Below, piece after piece: positions 11,317 through 46,100 of a stretch of 64,000 nt of DNA; within the stretch, counting starts at the first letter, position 1; each line of letters begins with the position of its first letter. The notes under the pieces are model-generated. The model saw only the letters and a program-made list of their open reading frames with translations. It was not told where the DNA came from and ran no database searches. The translations under genes were made by a program, and so were the position numbers. The stretch comes from Octopus vulgaris (lineage: Eukaryota), in contig OX597816.1 in NCBI GenBank assembly GCA_951406725.2, forward strand, positions 98,890,001-98,954,000. Reading direction: 5' to 3'.

Positions 11317-11356
<40 letters not shown>

Positions 11357-11452
11357 GGAGTAAACACATAAATGTGAAACAAGGTGGAAAAAAGAGTACT
11401 CAAATACCAGTGGTAGAGTAATATGCTTTATTTTAAGCAGCAGAAAATTCAA

Positions 11453-11502
11453 CAAAATCTGTTACTCTGAGTTTCTCGTTGCCGTTCATCAGACAGTTTT
11501 TG
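11453..11502 (-). ncRNA. Type I hammerhead ribozyme motif (left-arm copy)
   Basis: Reverse complement: CAAAAACUGU-CUGAUGA-ACGGCAACGA-GAAA-CUCAGAG-UA|ACAGAUUUUG. Confidence 0.8.
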
Positions 11503-12504
11503 CTAGAATGGAACATATATATTAATTCAATCTATACTCTTACAAACGCTACACCTTTAAAAAGAAATGGACTTGTTTGATTGGCCCTTTAGAAAAAACG
11601 GTCAATCTTCGAGCGATAAACAAAAAGGTCAAAAATATATGTATATATATATAAAAACTTATAAAAATTATAAAATCCGCGGAAAATACCGAGGAAAAAA
11701 CCTGTTGCCGTTAATGAAGACAGTACAAATTAATGCATAGAAATTAAACCTGTTATAAATACTGCAATACATATTTATATTAAAATCCACATATATATAT
11801 CAACATACACAAAAGGATGCGCGTAAACGCCATACATACATATACAGACGTATGAATATGAATCTAAATTATACACATAAAAGCATGTGTACATATATTC
11901 ACGCAAACCGTCTCGCACGCAAGCTAAAATTCATCTATGTAGCAATTCTCATATACTGAGCAAGGAGGGGGAACGAAAGAAAGGGAAAGAGAGAAAAAGG
12001 AACGGAGGAGGGGTGGAGAAAAACTTGTAGCGATGTTATTTGGCATCTATAGAGGCCAGTATACATACACAAGTTTGAATTGATACATATACATACCGTC
12101 GTGTATATGTGTGCTTAAGCACAAGCATACTTTCACTTACACATACACAGATACGCATGCTTACAAATACATATGCTTTGCTATACACAAACTTATATAA
12201 ACATTCTAAATTTGACAACATTGCTTTTTTATAAAAAAACATTGCTTTTAAAAAATGGGTGCATTAATAAAAATATATACGAAAGACCTATAAAATAAAA
12301 TATAACATCCTATTTTGGGTCATTTATAAATAATCAAGGTAATATAAATAATCAAGGTAATCTTATGCAATACAATAACATGAAAACAAAGTTTGTAGGT
12401 TTTTCCTAATATATATGTAGAAATAATAAGACTTTGCTATAGGTCCGTTGTAGCGCTCAAGAGTCAAAATCAAAATCAAAAAATCAAAATACAAAATATA
12501 TACT

Positions 12505-13383
12505 CTATCCATATGGTATATTTATATTCGACATTTTAAATTTAGCCTTGTGCCTACATAAGTTCATTAATTCACTTCTTTGATTCAAAGAATTATTGTC
12601 TTTGAATAATATGTGCATTTTTTCTAATAAGCAAAGCCTGCACTTGAAATTATATTTGTAAGCTCCATGCCTGTATGGTGCCGCCCTGTCCAGAATGCTC
12701 CATGTCACGTTGAAAGGTGGGGTTTCCTTTTCTTTTAGTTCCCAGACATATTTTGCTAGGCTGGTTTTCTTTCTATTCTCTGGGTATTTAAAAGAATTCT
12801 TATGAGAATAAAATCTTGTTTTAAATGAATTTTCTGAAGCCCCTGTGTATGTCTTGTATTCCGATGAGCCTTCCACTTGCACCTTGGCTCTATAAACTAC
12901 TCCTTTCACTAGACATTTCCCTTCTAACGGACAGGAGCTTTCGTTTTTGCAATTACATTTCTTAATGGGCTCGGCACCATGTCTAATCTCAATTAGCTTC
13001 CTATTATGTTGGCTAATGTAAGAGGCGAAATTTCTGCAACAAGAATAGCTAACCTTCAGGGTTCTTCTATTAAATATTCTGTAGAATTTATGACCCTGCC
13101 TAAAATGCTTAGAGACTAATCTCAAAAATTCCTTACCTATATTAGTCTTTACGGCCAAATTGAAAGCCGGGTTGAACCACAAAACTTTCCTAGTCCTAGT
13201 TCTTCGTGCAGCATTATTATTAGCATTAAGCTGGTTGAACTGGATCTTCTCCGAGAATCCACTATTCTTTAATGCGCTATCGTAATAAGGTGCAGCATTA
13301 TGGAATGCTGCCTCGTCCGAAGAAATTGAAGATATTCTTCTACCTACATTGCTGACTAAGTTAATAAGGATAACTATGAGCAT
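12505..13383 (-). CDS. PLE ORF C-terminal part (thumb end, CxC linker, GIY-YIG endonuclease), inverted copy, 292 aa
   Basis: Identical to the C-terminal ~289 aa of the + strand ORF; no stops. Confidence 0.85.
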   Translation of the reverse strand: MLIVILINLVSNVGRRISSISSDEAAFHNAAPYYDSALKNSGFSEKIQFNQLNANNNAARRTRTRKVLWFNPAFNLAVKTNIGKEFLRLVSKHFRQGHKFYRIFNRRTLKVSYSCCRNFASYISQHNRKLIEIRHGAEPIKKCNCKNESSCPLEGKCLVKGVVYRAKVQVEGSSEYKTYTGASENSFKTRFYSHKNSFKYPENRKKTSLAKYVWELKEKETPPFNVTWSILDRAAPYRHGAYKYNFKCRLCLLEKMHILFKDNNSLNQRSELMNLCRHKAKFKMSNINIPYG

Positions 13384-14464
13384 ACATAATTCAAACGGCC
13401 ATGAATCAGATAGACTTAGGAAGGACCTTATAGCTTTCTTTCAAAGGATGGGCTTACGGATTACGATAGATACTAACCTGAATAGTGTAGATTTTTTAGA
13501 CGTAAATTTTAATGTAAGATCGGATAGATTTAAACCTTTCCGTAAGCCCAATGAAAAGCTATCGTATATTAGCAAAGATTCGAACCATCCACCAGTTATC
13601 CTTATTAACTTAGTCAGCAATGTAGGTAGAAGAATATCTTCAATTTCTTCGGACGAGGCAGCATTCCATAATGCTGCACCTTATTACGATAGCGCATTAA
13701 AGAATAGTGGATTCTCGGAGAAGATCCAGTTCAACCAGCTTAATGCTAATAATAATGCTGCACGAAGAACTAGGACTAGGAAAGTTTTGTGGTTCAACCC
13801 GGCTTTCAATTTGGCCGTAAAGACTAATATAGGTAAGGAATTTTTGAGATTAGTCTCTAAGCATTTTAGGCAGGGTCATAAATTCTACAGAATATTTAAT
13901 AGAAGAACCCTGAAGGTTAGCTATTCTTGTTGCAGAAATTTCGCCTCTTACATTAGCCAACATAATAGGAAGCTAATTGAGATTAGACATGGTGCCGAGC
14001 CCATTAAGAAATGTAATTGCAAAAACGAAAGCTCCTGTCCGTTAGAAGGGAAATGTCTAGTGAAAGGAGTAGTTTATAGAGCCAAGGTGCAAGTGGAAGG
14101 CTCATCGGAATACAAGACATACACAGGGGCTTCAGAAAATTCATTTAAAACAAGATTTTATTCTCATAAGAATTCTTTTAAATACCCAGAGAATAGAAAG
14201 AAAACCAGCCTAGCAAAATATGTCTGGGAACTAAAAGAAAAGGAAACCCCACCTTTCAACGTGACATGGAGCATTCTGGACAGGGCGGCACCATACAGGC
14301 ATGGAGCTTACAAATATAATTTCAAGTGCAGGCTTTGCTTATTAGAAAAAATGCACATATTATTCAAAGACAATAATTCTTTGAATCAAAGAAGTGAATT
14401 AATGAACTTATGTAGGCACAAGGCTAAATTTAAAATGTCGAATATAAATATACCATATGGATAG
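13376..14464 (+). CDS. 5'-truncated PLE ORF (RT motifs 6-7 and thumb, CxCx5C linker, GIY-YIG endonuclease), 362 aa from the ATG
   Basis: VDFLDVNF...FRKP...SNHPP (PLE RT end), CNCKNESSCPLEGKC, GVVYRA...YTGASE..FKTRFYSH (GIY-YIG-like) and C-terminal CRLC...RSELMNLCRH. The catalytic YxDD motif is absent. Confidence 0.9.
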   Translation: MSIHNSNGHESDRLRKDLIAFFQRMGLRITIDTNLNSVDFLDVNFNVRSDRFKPFRKPNEKLSYISKDSNHPPVILINLVSNVGRRISSISSDEAAFHNAAPYYDSALKNSGFSEKIQFNQLNANNNAARRTRTRKVLWFNPAFNLAVKTNIGKEFLRLVSKHFRQGHKFYRIFNRRTLKVSYSCCRNFASYISQHNRKLIEIRHGAEPIKKCNCKNESSCPLEGKCLVKGVVYRAKVQVEGSSEYKTYTGASENSFKTRFYSHKNSFKYPENRKKTSLAKYVWELKEKETPPFNVTWSILDRAAPYRHGAYKYNFKCRLCLLEKMHILFKDNNSLNQRSELMNLCRHKAKFKMSNINIPYG

Positions 14465-15469
14465 AGTATATATTTTGTATTTTGATTTTTTGATTTTGAT
14501 TTTGACTCTTGAGCGCTACAACGGACCTATAGCAAAGTCTTATTATTTCTACATATATATTAGGAAAAACCTACAAACTTTGTTTTCATGTTATTGTATT
14601 GCATAAGATTACCTTGATTATTTATATTACCTTGATTATTTATAAATGACCCAAAATAGGATGTTATATTTTATTTTATAGGTCTTTCGTATATATTTTT
14701 ATTAATGCACCCATTTTTTAAAAGCAATGTTTTTTTATAAAAAAAGCAATGTTGTCAAATTTAGAATGTTTATATAAGTTTGTGTATAGCAAAGCATATG
14801 TATTTGTAAGCATGCGTATCTGTGTATGTGTAAGTGAAAGTATGCTTGTGCTTAAGCACACATATACACGACGGTATGTATATGTATCAATTCAAACTTG
14901 TGTATGTATACTGGCCTCTATAGATGCCAAATAACATCGCTACAAGTTTTTTCTCCACCCCTCCTCCGTTCCTTTTTCTCTCTTTCCCTTTCTTTCGTTC
15001 CCCCTCCTTGCTTCAGTATATGAGAATTGCTACATAGATGAATTTTAGCTTGCGTGCGAGACGGTTTGCGTGAATATATGTACACATGCTTTTATGTGTA
15101 TAATTTAGATTCATATTCATACGTCTGTATATGTATGTATGGCGTTTACGCGCATCCTTTTGTGTATGTTGATATATATATGTGGATTTTAATATAAATA
15201 TGTATTGCAGTATTTATAACAGGTTTAATTTCTATGCATTAATTTGTACTGTCTTCATTAACGGCAACAGGTTTTTTCCTCGGTATTTTCCGCGGATTTT
15301 ATAATTTTTATAAGTTTTTATATATATATACATATATTTTTGACCTTTTTGTTTATCGCTCGAAGATTGACCGTTTTTTCTAAAGGGCCAATCAAACAAG
15401 TCCATTTCTTTTTAAAGGTGTAGCGTTTGTAAGAGTATAGATTGAATTAATATATATGTTCCATTCTAG

Positions 15470-15519
15470 CAAAAACTGTCTGATGAACGGCAACGAGAAA
15501 CTCAGAGTAACAGATTTTG
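15470..15519 (+). ncRNA. Type I hammerhead ribozyme motif (right-arm copy)
   Basis: Core CTGATGA (15480-15486) and GAAA (15497-15500); stem II CG-GCAA-CG; stem III ACTC-A-GAGT; predicted cleavage after GUA (15509); stem I CAAAA-A-CTGT pairs with ACAG-A-TTTTG. Confidence 0.82.
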
Positions 15520-15545
15520 TTGAATTTTCTGCTGCTTAAAATAAA

Positions 15546-15585
<40 letters not shown>

Positions 15586-18609: not shown

Positions 18610-18714
18610 TGGCGGTGCCCCAGCATGGCCACAGCTCAAGAGCTGAAACTGGAAAAACAAAAAACAAAAACAAAAAACATACATAAATACAGATATATAC
18701 ACTTTGTATATATA

Positions 18715-18980
18715 CATTATATATACATATTTATATATAGAACACACACACACACACATTATATATACATATTTATATATAGAACACACACACACACACA
18801 CACATTATATATACATATTTATATATAGAACACACACACACACATACATTATATATACATATTTATATATAGAACACACACACACACATACATTATATAT
18901 ACATATTTATATATAGAACACACACACACATACATTATATATACATATATATATAGAACACACACACACACGCACACATA
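18715..18980. repeat. Minisatellite, ~40-bp unit x ~6
   Basis: Unit CATTATATATACATATTTATATATAGAA(CA)n. Confidence 0.9.
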
Positions 18981-20069
18981 TAAATGAACGCAAGAATATC
19001 TGATTCATAATATTTGTTCTCATGCTCGTGTGTTGATTGTTGGTGACAGACATATACTTCAAAGAACGCCGCCAAAGTGATAGGAAGGTAGGAAACAGAG
19101 TCAGTGAAAAAGAAAGGAAATAGCGATAGTGACAGATACTTTAAATAACCGTAGTGGCATTCTGAAAGTTATAAATGAAGAGGAGTGACAGAGTACTGGA
19201 GGAAATAGGGTGAGGTAGGAAGATGGCCCCTAGAAACCACAGCTTTTAAGATAGGGATTTCTAAGGTAGCCACGCGCATCGTCACCTCATTCTACATGTC
19301 CCTGTAAATTTTGGAGCGAATCGGACGGGATGTAGTGACATTGAAAGCGAACCAAGCGGTAGCGAAGATATGTTTTTATGTTACTTATATCCATTTACGT
19401 TGTTTTATTTATGCATTTTTAAATTTTTCATCACCTCTCGTATCTCTTTCTATTAAATATCACCAAAAACTAAGTCTTTATGAATTTGTACCTTCGACAT
19501 TTTCTCAATCTGTAGTTTTGTCTATAACTGAAATGTAATAATGATTAAAACATGTTAAACATTTAATATTATCTTCACTGCAAAATACAAACAAATCAGC
19601 TGACAAAATGCAGAAAAATATGTCTCCAACTGCCTAATGTTTCTTTCTCTTAAACCATACAAGGAGTAGTCATCAGCTGTTCCATAAGTCTAAGAATTTT
19701 GCTTAACTCTAGTTTGTATACATAATAAATACTTATAAACTTTCTATCTACTACATCTTTTATGCCGTGCATAGAAGATGGATAAATTTTGTTATTGTTG
19801 TTTTTATCTGATGAAGGCATAAGAAGCCTACTGTAGAAACAAATCAAATTAATTCCATATACATAAGCGCGTGTGATATTCAGCATTTATTATAATATCT
19901 TTTTATTTTTACTTTCCATATGGATGCTAAATATCATGTTATGTACAAAAATTATGTATCATATTACCTAAAAGTTGTGGTATGAAACAATTCGTCTCAC
20001 ACGCACGCGCACACATACACACACATACACACACATACACACTCACACATAATATTTACTCTTGGTACT

Positions 20070-42566: not shown

Positions 42567-42751
42567 CGCTATCTAATTATGTTTATCTATCTAATTATGT
42601 CTGTCTATCTATCTACCAATCTCTCACAAAACCATTAGACATTTTAACATTTGTACTTTTGATAACAGGTCTATAGTTAAGAGATGAGGAATTATGTACA
42701 TTATTTACATTAAAATTCGACAGATATTTTTTGCTCATCTTGTTTATTGTT

Positions 42752-42797
42752 AACACAATGTTTCGGATGATATGCCCTCCAGCCTTCTTCAGGTGTC
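42752..42797 (-). ncRNA. Hammerhead ribozyme motif (slightly decayed) at the PLE 3' end
   Basis: Reverse complement GACAC-CUGAAGA-A-GGCUG-GAGGGCAUAU-CAUCC-GAAA-CA-UU|GUGUU; stem I GACAC/GUGUU; stem II GGCUG/CAUCC with one mismatch. Confidence 0.7.
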
Positions 42798-45914: not shown

Positions 45915-46099
45915 AGTAAACACATAAATGTGAAACAAGGTGGAAAAAAGAGTACTCAAATACCAGTGGTAGAGTAATATGCTTTATTTTAAGCAGCAGA
46001 AAATTCAACAAAATCTGTTACTCTGAGTTTGGTCTGATGAACGGCAACGAGAAACTCAGAGTAACAGATTTTGTTGAATTTTCTGCTGCTTAAAATAAA

Positions 46100-46100
<1 letters not shown>
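45915..46100. mobile_element. Miniature inverted derivative of the 11355-15546 PLE family
   Basis: Tail 45915-45981 is identical to 11359-11425. 49-bp perfect inverted arms (45982-46030 and 46052-46100) enclose a 21-bp spacer holding CTGATGA. It ends at the same AAATAAAG|(TA)n junction. Confidence 0.92.

Follow-up and report, generated by a model that had tools for sequence, protein, structure and literature searches.

A minimal hammerhead, predicted to cleave only as a dimer, and conserved hairpins that probably set the reverse transcription start in a truncated Hydra-clade Penelope-like element

Penelope-like elements (PLEs) of the Hydra clade, as described by Craig et al. (2021, PMC8557442), encode a C-terminal GIY-YIG endonuclease without CCHH, a CxCx5C linker and CxxC and CxH motifs, and they target (TA)n; they show an inverted 5′-truncated copy, a tail at one end, and a palindromic hammerhead stem III of 4 bp plus 1 nt. 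All of these features are shared by the octopus element analysed here. The minimal hammerheads of PLEs were analysed by Cervera and de la Pena (2014, PMC4209133), and ours resembles them in being of type I, in its palindromic stem III, in its predicted dimer-only cleavage, in its pLTR location and in the circular-template model that can be applied to it. The consensus of that study has a long helix II with a conserved G10.1-C11.1 pair, whereas our ribozyme and most of its Hydra-type relatives have a mispaired closure, and its own helix II is only 2 bp long. A third parallel is PAc Poseidon of Anolis (Frangieh et al. 2024, PMC11167929), in which two internal RT start sites bound the tail, both target strands are nicked and extended, RNA is needed 3′ of the start, the protein is predicted to dimerise and a hammerhead lies just upstream. 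Unlike those of PAc Poseidon, the Hydra-type ends both lie in the 5′ UTR, each at a fixed distance before a covarying bulged hairpin; a term search of the supplementary files of PMC11167929, as far as these were covered, gave no matches. Non-LTR retrozymes (PMC7229834; bioRxiv 10.64898/2026.07.22.740005), which are thought to be PLE-derived, also carry type I dimer hammerheads, but they are described as short non-coding tandem repeats, whereas our element has an RT/endonuclease ORF; identity with them was ruled out by the coding element, the inverted arrangement and the lack of a head-to-tail array. How PLE tails and inverted ends arise, which RNA is recognised by the RT and what the hammerhead is for are stated as open in the parts of this literature covered here (PMC11167929, PMC8557442).

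We analysed a stretch of 64,000 nt from Octopus vulgaris (hereafter the window), which is AT-rich, microsatellite-rich and of animal type. On balance, we read the motif at 15470-15519 as a minimal hammerhead in the 3′ repeat of a truncated Hydra-clade PLE, predicted to be active only as a dimer and followed, in the longer copies, by conserved hairpins that probably set the start of RT. The new part is the twin hairpins near both element ends, rather than the A.A closure of the ribozyme.

Truncated head-to-head insertions in (TA)n

The motif sits in a head-to-head insertion, whose left arm runs from 13375 down to 11355 and whose right arm occupies 13376-15546, both ending in (TA)n. A third copy of the hammerhead core, at 46034, belongs to a second, small head-to-head insertion (45915-46100) with the same layout as the large one. 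The features of both are as follows.

11321..11354, no strand: left half of the (TA)n target, read from the sequence
11355..13375, minus: left arm, an inverted copy truncated more deeply, with the long type of 3′ end (108 nt beyond the cut site)
11355..11425, minus: 71-nt tail, found in the left arm only by comparison of the arms
11396..11419, minus: hairpin 1, with an ACUC/GAGU lower stem, a U-rich 3′ bulge and a 4-bp upper stem, then AC; a clade-wide covarying motif
11453..11502, minus: identical hammerhead of the inverted arm, from the arm alignment and the descriptor
13376..15546, plus: right arm, a 5′-truncated Hydra-clade PLE copy with the short type of 3′ end (37 nt beyond the cut site; in long copies hairpin 1 begins 6 nt further on)
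13376..14464, plus: open 5′-truncated ORF of 362 aa, with the RT end (DFLD), thumb, CxCx5C linker (14012), VVY...YTG GIY-YIG endonuclease, CxxC and CxH
15470..15519, plus: type I minimal hammerhead, from sequence, fold prediction and the strict descriptor
15547..15584, no strand: right half of the (TA)n target, read from the sequence
45915..46030, minus: long arm of the mini insertion, truncated within the hammerhead core so that only the 3′ half remains, and including the tail and its hairpin 1 (45952-45975); no (TA)n at that end
46032..46100, plus: short arm of the mini insertion, with the hammerhead core from 46034, most of the stem I 5′ strand missing, and the same short end into (TA)n

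The arms of the large insertion differ at 1 of 1955 aligned bases and by three one-base indels, which confirms that a second hammerhead copy lies on the opposite strand. (TA)n was found at three of the four insertion ends within the window, and also at loose ends in contigs from sequencing runs. Inverted 5′-truncated copies with a one-sided tail are a known product of PLE insertion, and the window copies are truncated, non-autonomous products. Their tail of 71 nt compares with the 30-40 nt reported for Hydra-clade PLEs (PMC8557442). The original prediction had placed the ribozyme 37 nt from the element end, which is right for the right arm; in the left arm the end lies 108 nt past the cut site, so that only one of two alternative 3′ ends had been taken as the end of the element and the hairpin in the tail had been missed.

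The 362-aa ORF lacks CCHH and the first half of the RT, and is 56% identical to the C-terminal half of its best match, the 713-aa protein P0001. Forty-nine longer homologues were found, mostly of about 700 aa, and the consensus of the 46 full-length ones that were aligned has RWK, DKT and YRDD, the RWK/DKT region being cut off in the window copy. Such protein motifs and the (TA)n target are described as marks of the Hydra clade (PMC8557442), and the element is almost certainly a Hydra-clade Penelope-like retrotransposon with a minimal hammerhead. This placement was made by motifs, the tree covering relatives only and the named Hydra-1_Obim stretch being compared by eye; as the window hammerhead differs from that of Hydra-1_oBim, it belongs to another family. 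Pfam gave no match above noise for the 362-aa ORF or for three full-length homologues, and a protein search of viral contigs gave no match.

Several further traits of these elements were recorded. The 3′ UTR of the window copy (14465-15469, about 1.0 kb, rich in simple repeats) is longer than that of 43 of 44 relatives, which mostly have 70-540 nt. Points of 5′ truncation or inversion recur within or just upstream of the hammerhead (46030-46032; 4415-4441 in L092; opposite-strand joints at 11498-11500), as if the RT stalled there or many templates began there. In L092, L095 and L089, PLEs of several different families lie nested within one another's (TA)n ends, with up to eight hammerheads in 7 kb. 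Fifteen loci with Hydra-clade PLEs (L081-L095) came from prokaryotic genome bins and symbiont assemblies, one of them (L086) in a 491-kb contig; these are most likely host DNA contamination.

The hammerhead and its relatives

Inspection of 15470-15519 bore out the anatomy first proposed for it, namely the core, a 9-bp stem I with an A.A mismatch, a 2-bp stem II capped by GCAA between two As and an ACUC-A-GAGU stem III. CUGAUGA (C3-A9) occupies 15480-15486 and is followed by A10.1 at 15487; stem II (C-G/G-C, 2 bp, GCAA loop) lies at 15488-15495, between A10.1 and A11.1 (15496); GAA is at 15497-15499, the palindromic stem III at 15500-15508 and A17 at 15509, which places the predicted cut at 15509/15510. 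Stem I pairs 15470-15479 with 15510-15519. The entire core set is present (C3 U4 G5 A6 N7 G8 A9, G12 A13 A14, A15.1-U16.1, H17), as are the open stem I and the stem II hairpin of type I hammerheads; the typical, non-universal G10.1-C11.1 pair is absent and replaced by A.A. An alternative register that restores a C11.1-G12 step was rejected, as both G14 and stem III are disrupted in it.

A strict descriptor (stem I of at least 4, stem II of at least 2 and stem III of at least 4 bp, loop of at most 2) matched twice in the window (15480, plus; 11492, minus) and once in 300 dinucleotide-shuffled windows. The hammerhead is thus confirmed as a real sequence motif. The Rfam hammerhead models gave no match in the window or in a 151-nt region, nor in six related loci with clear hammerheads, which indicates that such models miss Hydra-type hammerheads; the other Rfam matches in the whole window were microsatellite artefacts, none of them real. 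An exact hammerhead search of metagenome contigs and a degenerate one of viral contigs gave no match, and we found no description of this ribozyme in octopus in the literature searched.

Folding predictions suggest that stem III could form only as an intermolecular helix (8 of 9 pairs). The best monomer fold pairs CUGA with stem III and buries the core, whereas for two copies of the window sequence the double hammerhead is the best fold (-17.4 against 2 x -7.6 kcal/mol) and makes up about 38% of the dimer ensemble. Dimer-only cleavage, which had been proposed by analogy with other PLE hammerheads, is therefore probable by prediction. For the 11.1U and U4C/11.1G variants described below another dimer fold scores better than the double hammerhead, which makes the support for the dimer modest. 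The ribozyme quite likely has weak, dimer-dependent cleavage. Same-sense hammerheads flank an intact ORF of 701-728 aa in five of six loci examined, and the cis dimer would form between the two same-sense hammerheads of such intact elements.

The original prediction had called the ribozyme atypical, and comparison with its relatives speaks against this. Among 95 related loci (L001-L095; near-copies are included, so that counts overstate independence) we found 84 hammerheads in 59 loci, 65 of them distinct and 55 of these with a Hydra-type stem III. The letters at 10.1/11.1 in these 55 were U/U (31), G/C (17), A/U (2), G/U (2), C/A (2) and A/A (1), so that G10.1-C11.1 is absent in 38 of 55. Counted by eye in the File S2 of Craig et al. 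(2021, PMC8557442), as far as it was covered, 25 Hydra families have U/U (14), G/C (7), G/U (3), U/C (1) and A/A (0), that is, 18 of 25 without G-C. Stems II of 2 bp and U10.1.U11.1 have already been published, the latter reported as the best mispair (PMC3088659). A 10-nt stem II domain with two inner pairs (a 2-bp stem II) occurs in 3 of the 55 distinct relatives, and the stem III ACUCAGAGU is common to 4 of them. Among listed families, Penelope-3_HM has an identical ACTC-A-GAGT stem III and Hydra-2_aMil a CTGT/ACAG stem I, while none of the 25 combines with the window family in having an A.A closure or a 2-bp stem II (PMC8557442, in the portion consulted). The ribozyme itself is hence ordinary for the Hydra clade and its kind is already known; only the combination of A.A with a 2-bp stem II is particular to the window family. 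The A.A at 10.1/11.1 probably lowers activity.

On a tree with 44 rows (the loci with a near-complete match and a downstream hammerhead), all G-C closures fall within a single supported subclade, and A.A must have arisen at least twice. Of the 52 related loci with sufficient DNA downstream of the ORF, 39 have a hammerhead there, and the proteins of hammerhead-bearing loci are only about 40% identical. We also observed that among L001-L095 the G-C closure of stem II accompanies a 10-nt stem III and the U.U closure a 9-nt stem III; as this association mostly reflects one subclade of the tree, it does not show co-evolution.

Variation within the family was assessed by aligning contigs of four sequencing runs to 11353-11630, with shares that are weighted by depth and do not count copies. 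The two large DNA runs show U (16-21%) or G (34-37%) at position 11.1, with mostly A in the remainder; they also show GGAA instead of GCAA in the GNRA loop (6-10%), changes at N7 (6-16%) and at the stem I mismatch (60-65%), and U4C at 31-57% of depth. These are the five positions that vary by at least 5% in both runs, and four of them (N7, 11.1, the GNRA N and the stem I mismatch) are structurally free; among the rows listed, no variant of at least 5% falls in stem II, stem III, the four core-proximal pairs of stem I or core bases other than U4C. This enrichment at free sites gives a hypergeometric P of 0.002-0.009, with the free sites chosen by us. The original prediction had asked for preferential conservation of core nucleotides among copies; the common variants avoid invariant core bases, U4C excepted, but overall the motif varies at least as much as its flanks (5 common sites in 50 nt against about 3 in 100 and 3 in 128). 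U4C is a tolerated natural variant, with which viroid infectivity is reported to be kept (PMC3088659). Our reading of these few events is that selection may have acted on the fold in source elements, with weak or relaxed catalysis. Contig depth, a crude measure, drops across the hammerhead, not sharply at the cut site. U4C, G11.1 and the stem I change occur together on one contig (run X17 record 16), which departs from the element 13 nt upstream of the core (loose end 11505) and continues into a sequence that ends in a palindrome; it is possibly from an abundant short non-autonomous or fold-back subfamily.

Twin hairpins and two classes of element end

A (TA)n run lies within 400 nt of 27 of 74 Hydra-type hammerheads, and in all 27 cases within 118 nt of the cut site. 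Three of these runs (L006, L061, L082) are template-internal tracts before a hairpin and were dropped as ends. The 24 true ends fall into two classes, 14 at 32-60 nt and 8 at 92-118 nt, with 2 in between; the window ends at 37 and 108 nt fit the short and the long class, respectively. A bulged hairpin, GCUC-Y...-UYGAGC-AC, is present in long ends; its compensatory variants are ACUC/GAGU in the window and GCAC/GUGC in L091. The strict hairpin follows 36 of 50 hammerheads that are read through, 1 of 16 that are short-ended and none of 8 that are cut by a contig end; it is absent after the other 14 read-through hammerheads, and none was seen in L037 or L051. The background of the descriptor is 36 matches in 548,626 nt, many of them at other element ends.

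The upper stem, on which the descriptor sets no condition, is 86% paired against 55% in shuffled sequences (0 of 500) and at most 69% when slid, and it shows 32 two-sided changes in 27 sequences. In family copies, common changes fall in the loop and the bulge of the hairpin, not in its stems. A covariance model found 102 matches in 343 kb, two of them in the window. Thirty pairs of hairpins are spaced 52-83 nt apart, a range that includes the 71 nt of the window tail. The order in intact relatives is hammerhead, hairpin 1, hairpin 2, ATG, RT/GIY-YIG ORF, hammerhead, and of the 23 long ORFs that have more than 150 nt of upstream sequence, 16 have hairpin matches in the 5′ UTR. In the window family, hairpin 2 is not visible. 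Rfam has no match for the twin hairpin, the parts of the Hydra-clade description covered here make no mention of it (PMC8557442), and we found no account of it in the text of the openly accessible papers searched.

The position of the junctions relative to the hairpins could be read wherever a read-through copy of the same family was available, which was the case for 10 of 29 TA-ended copies. In eight of these ten informative ends the junction lies 6-10 nt before a hairpin, six being short ends before hairpin 1 and two being long ends before hairpin 2 (6-7 nt, two ends only). The other two junctions are at -3 and 2 nt, blurred by TA-like bases; a junction match in L080 was dropped, as it belonged to another family. 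Across 81 hairpins, TA/AT steps account for 0.44 of the bases on the 5′ side against 0.18 on the 3′ side. In each of the five clear head-to-head insertions, of which two are in the window, two in L092 and one in L090, a long end is combined with a short one, and the inverted insertion of L095 is probably long/short too. L092 also holds one short/short pair 3.3 kb apart, which may be an exception or two events.

Priming on both target strands and rival readings

Beyond the observed anatomy, end classes, hairpin distances and long/short asymmetry, we lean towards a mechanism with one hairpin per protein subunit. Each subunit of the RT-endonuclease dimer would bind one hairpin, and a nicked (TA)n strand would pair with the UA-rich bases just 5′ of that hairpin and prime copying. 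With both target strands primed, two cDNAs would be joined at their truncated ends, yielding an inverted insertion with a tail on one arm, the length of which would equal the hairpin spacing; the hammerhead of the template would be intact while copied. This priming model is supported by PAc Poseidon, which is reported to start at two internal sites, to prime on both strands and to depend on RNA located 3′ of the start site, and whose protein is predicted to dimerise (PMC11167929).

The hairpins may instead serve in the 5′ UTR for translation or for assembly of the RNP, or be recognised by the endonuclease as a DNA signal, and ends would then fall nearby only through pairing of UA-rich sequence with (TA)n. 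We consider this unlikely. Three observations would suit such a role: in most of the 16 ORFs with an upstream match, 46-71 nt separate the ATG from its nearest hairpin; the D. virilis endonuclease, according to a citation in PMC11167929, required the tail sequence in DNA; and UA-rich tracts do adjoin the hairpins on their 5′ side. However, AU-rich sequence abounds in the vicinity and yet the distance at both hairpins stays within a tight 6-10 nt; the covariation includes G.U pairs, which suggests a structure formed by a single strand; and the long/short asymmetry requires two distinct start sites in one event.

The role of the hammerhead in this priming mechanism is more tentative. Both hairpins are in the 5′ UTR and the 3′ repeats stop before hairpin 2, so that the ORF could be copied from both sites only with a circle, or with RNA read through tandem copies, as template. 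A source element would be cleaved by its two same-sense hammerheads, and ligation would then give a circle with the 5′ hairpins behind the ORF, in keeping with the published model of dimer cleavage and ligation to a circular template (PMC4209133); such a circle would keep a single, inactive hammerhead, which would explain the dimer-only activity. That cleavage and ligation supply this circle is conceivable, though we rate it a little below an even chance. The same caution applies to the full picture, in which Hydra-clade PLEs would possess a three-part RNA module: a dimer-only hammerhead, which would circularise the RNA and bring the 5′ UTR hairpins behind the ORF, and two bulged hairpins, each anchoring one subunit of a telomerase-like RT dimer with a UA tract 6-10 nt upstream, so that both (TA)n strands would be primed at once, with tail and inversion as direct outcomes.

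Work on the anole PLE counts against a role of the hammerhead, for mutating it did not alter insertion in vitro and RNA ends at the cut site were not observed; that hammerhead is reported to cleave only with protein and to be dispensable for in vitro insertion (PMC11167929). Naiad PLEs are described as thriving without hammerheads (PMC8557442), which counts against a need for it. It is possible, if somewhat unlikely, that the family hammerhead is decaying or a passenger, the A.A or A.G closure and U4C marking a loss of catalysis, with transposition through uncleaved tandem read-through RNA and hairpins that may still set priming. The anole mutants fit this, as do the A, G or U at 11.1, the share of U4C among family copies, the parasitism of PLEs by hammerheads raised by Craig et al. 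(PMC8557442) and the presence of both hairpins behind the 3′ hammerhead in several contigs, as tandem templates would give. Against it, common variants spare stems II and III, the core-proximal stem I pairs and the core bases except U4C, the A.A closure arose at least twice, and the hammerhead was kept in the 39 of 52 loci across proteins about 40% identical.

The first reading of the locus had also held that a single transcript of both copies would sequester the ribozyme in dsRNA. This is geometrically true for a read-through transcript of the window, but the locus is 5′-truncated and its intact relatives have same-sense hammerheads around the ORF, which limits the argument to the truncated insertion. 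That the window locus is a regulated unit, whose inverted copy silences an unusual ribozyme via dsRNA, is highly improbable despite arms that are almost perfectly complementary over about 1.96 kb and a predicted sense-antisense duplex of -87.8 kcal/mol for the 50-mer. Inverted 5′-truncated copies are normal for PLEs and are seen again at 45.9-46.1 kb, in L090 and in L092; the first half of the ORF is missing; and Pfam gave no host exon among the 71 ORFs of at least 85 aa in the window.

For the priming mechanism that we favour, a covarying hairpin at a fixed distance from both ends offers a concrete RNA element for mutation or relocation in the existing in vitro assay. If the model holds, this hairpin would define what anchors the RTs closest to telomerase to their RNA, and it would offer a portable signal to programme where such an RT starts copying.

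The window contains a few other features of this kind. An unrelated minimal hammerhead-like motif at 42750-42797 (minus), with CUGAAGA, an extra A, a 5-bp stem II with one mismatch and GAAAC, lies in a short repeat adjoining an (AAT)n run and is probably the end of another PLE family. Additional CUGANGA...GAAA strings at 19808 (plus), 19676 (minus) and 48544 (plus) all fail the stem tests and are probably chance or decayed motifs. A tandem repeat with a period of 42-44 nt is present in six copies at 18670-19019.
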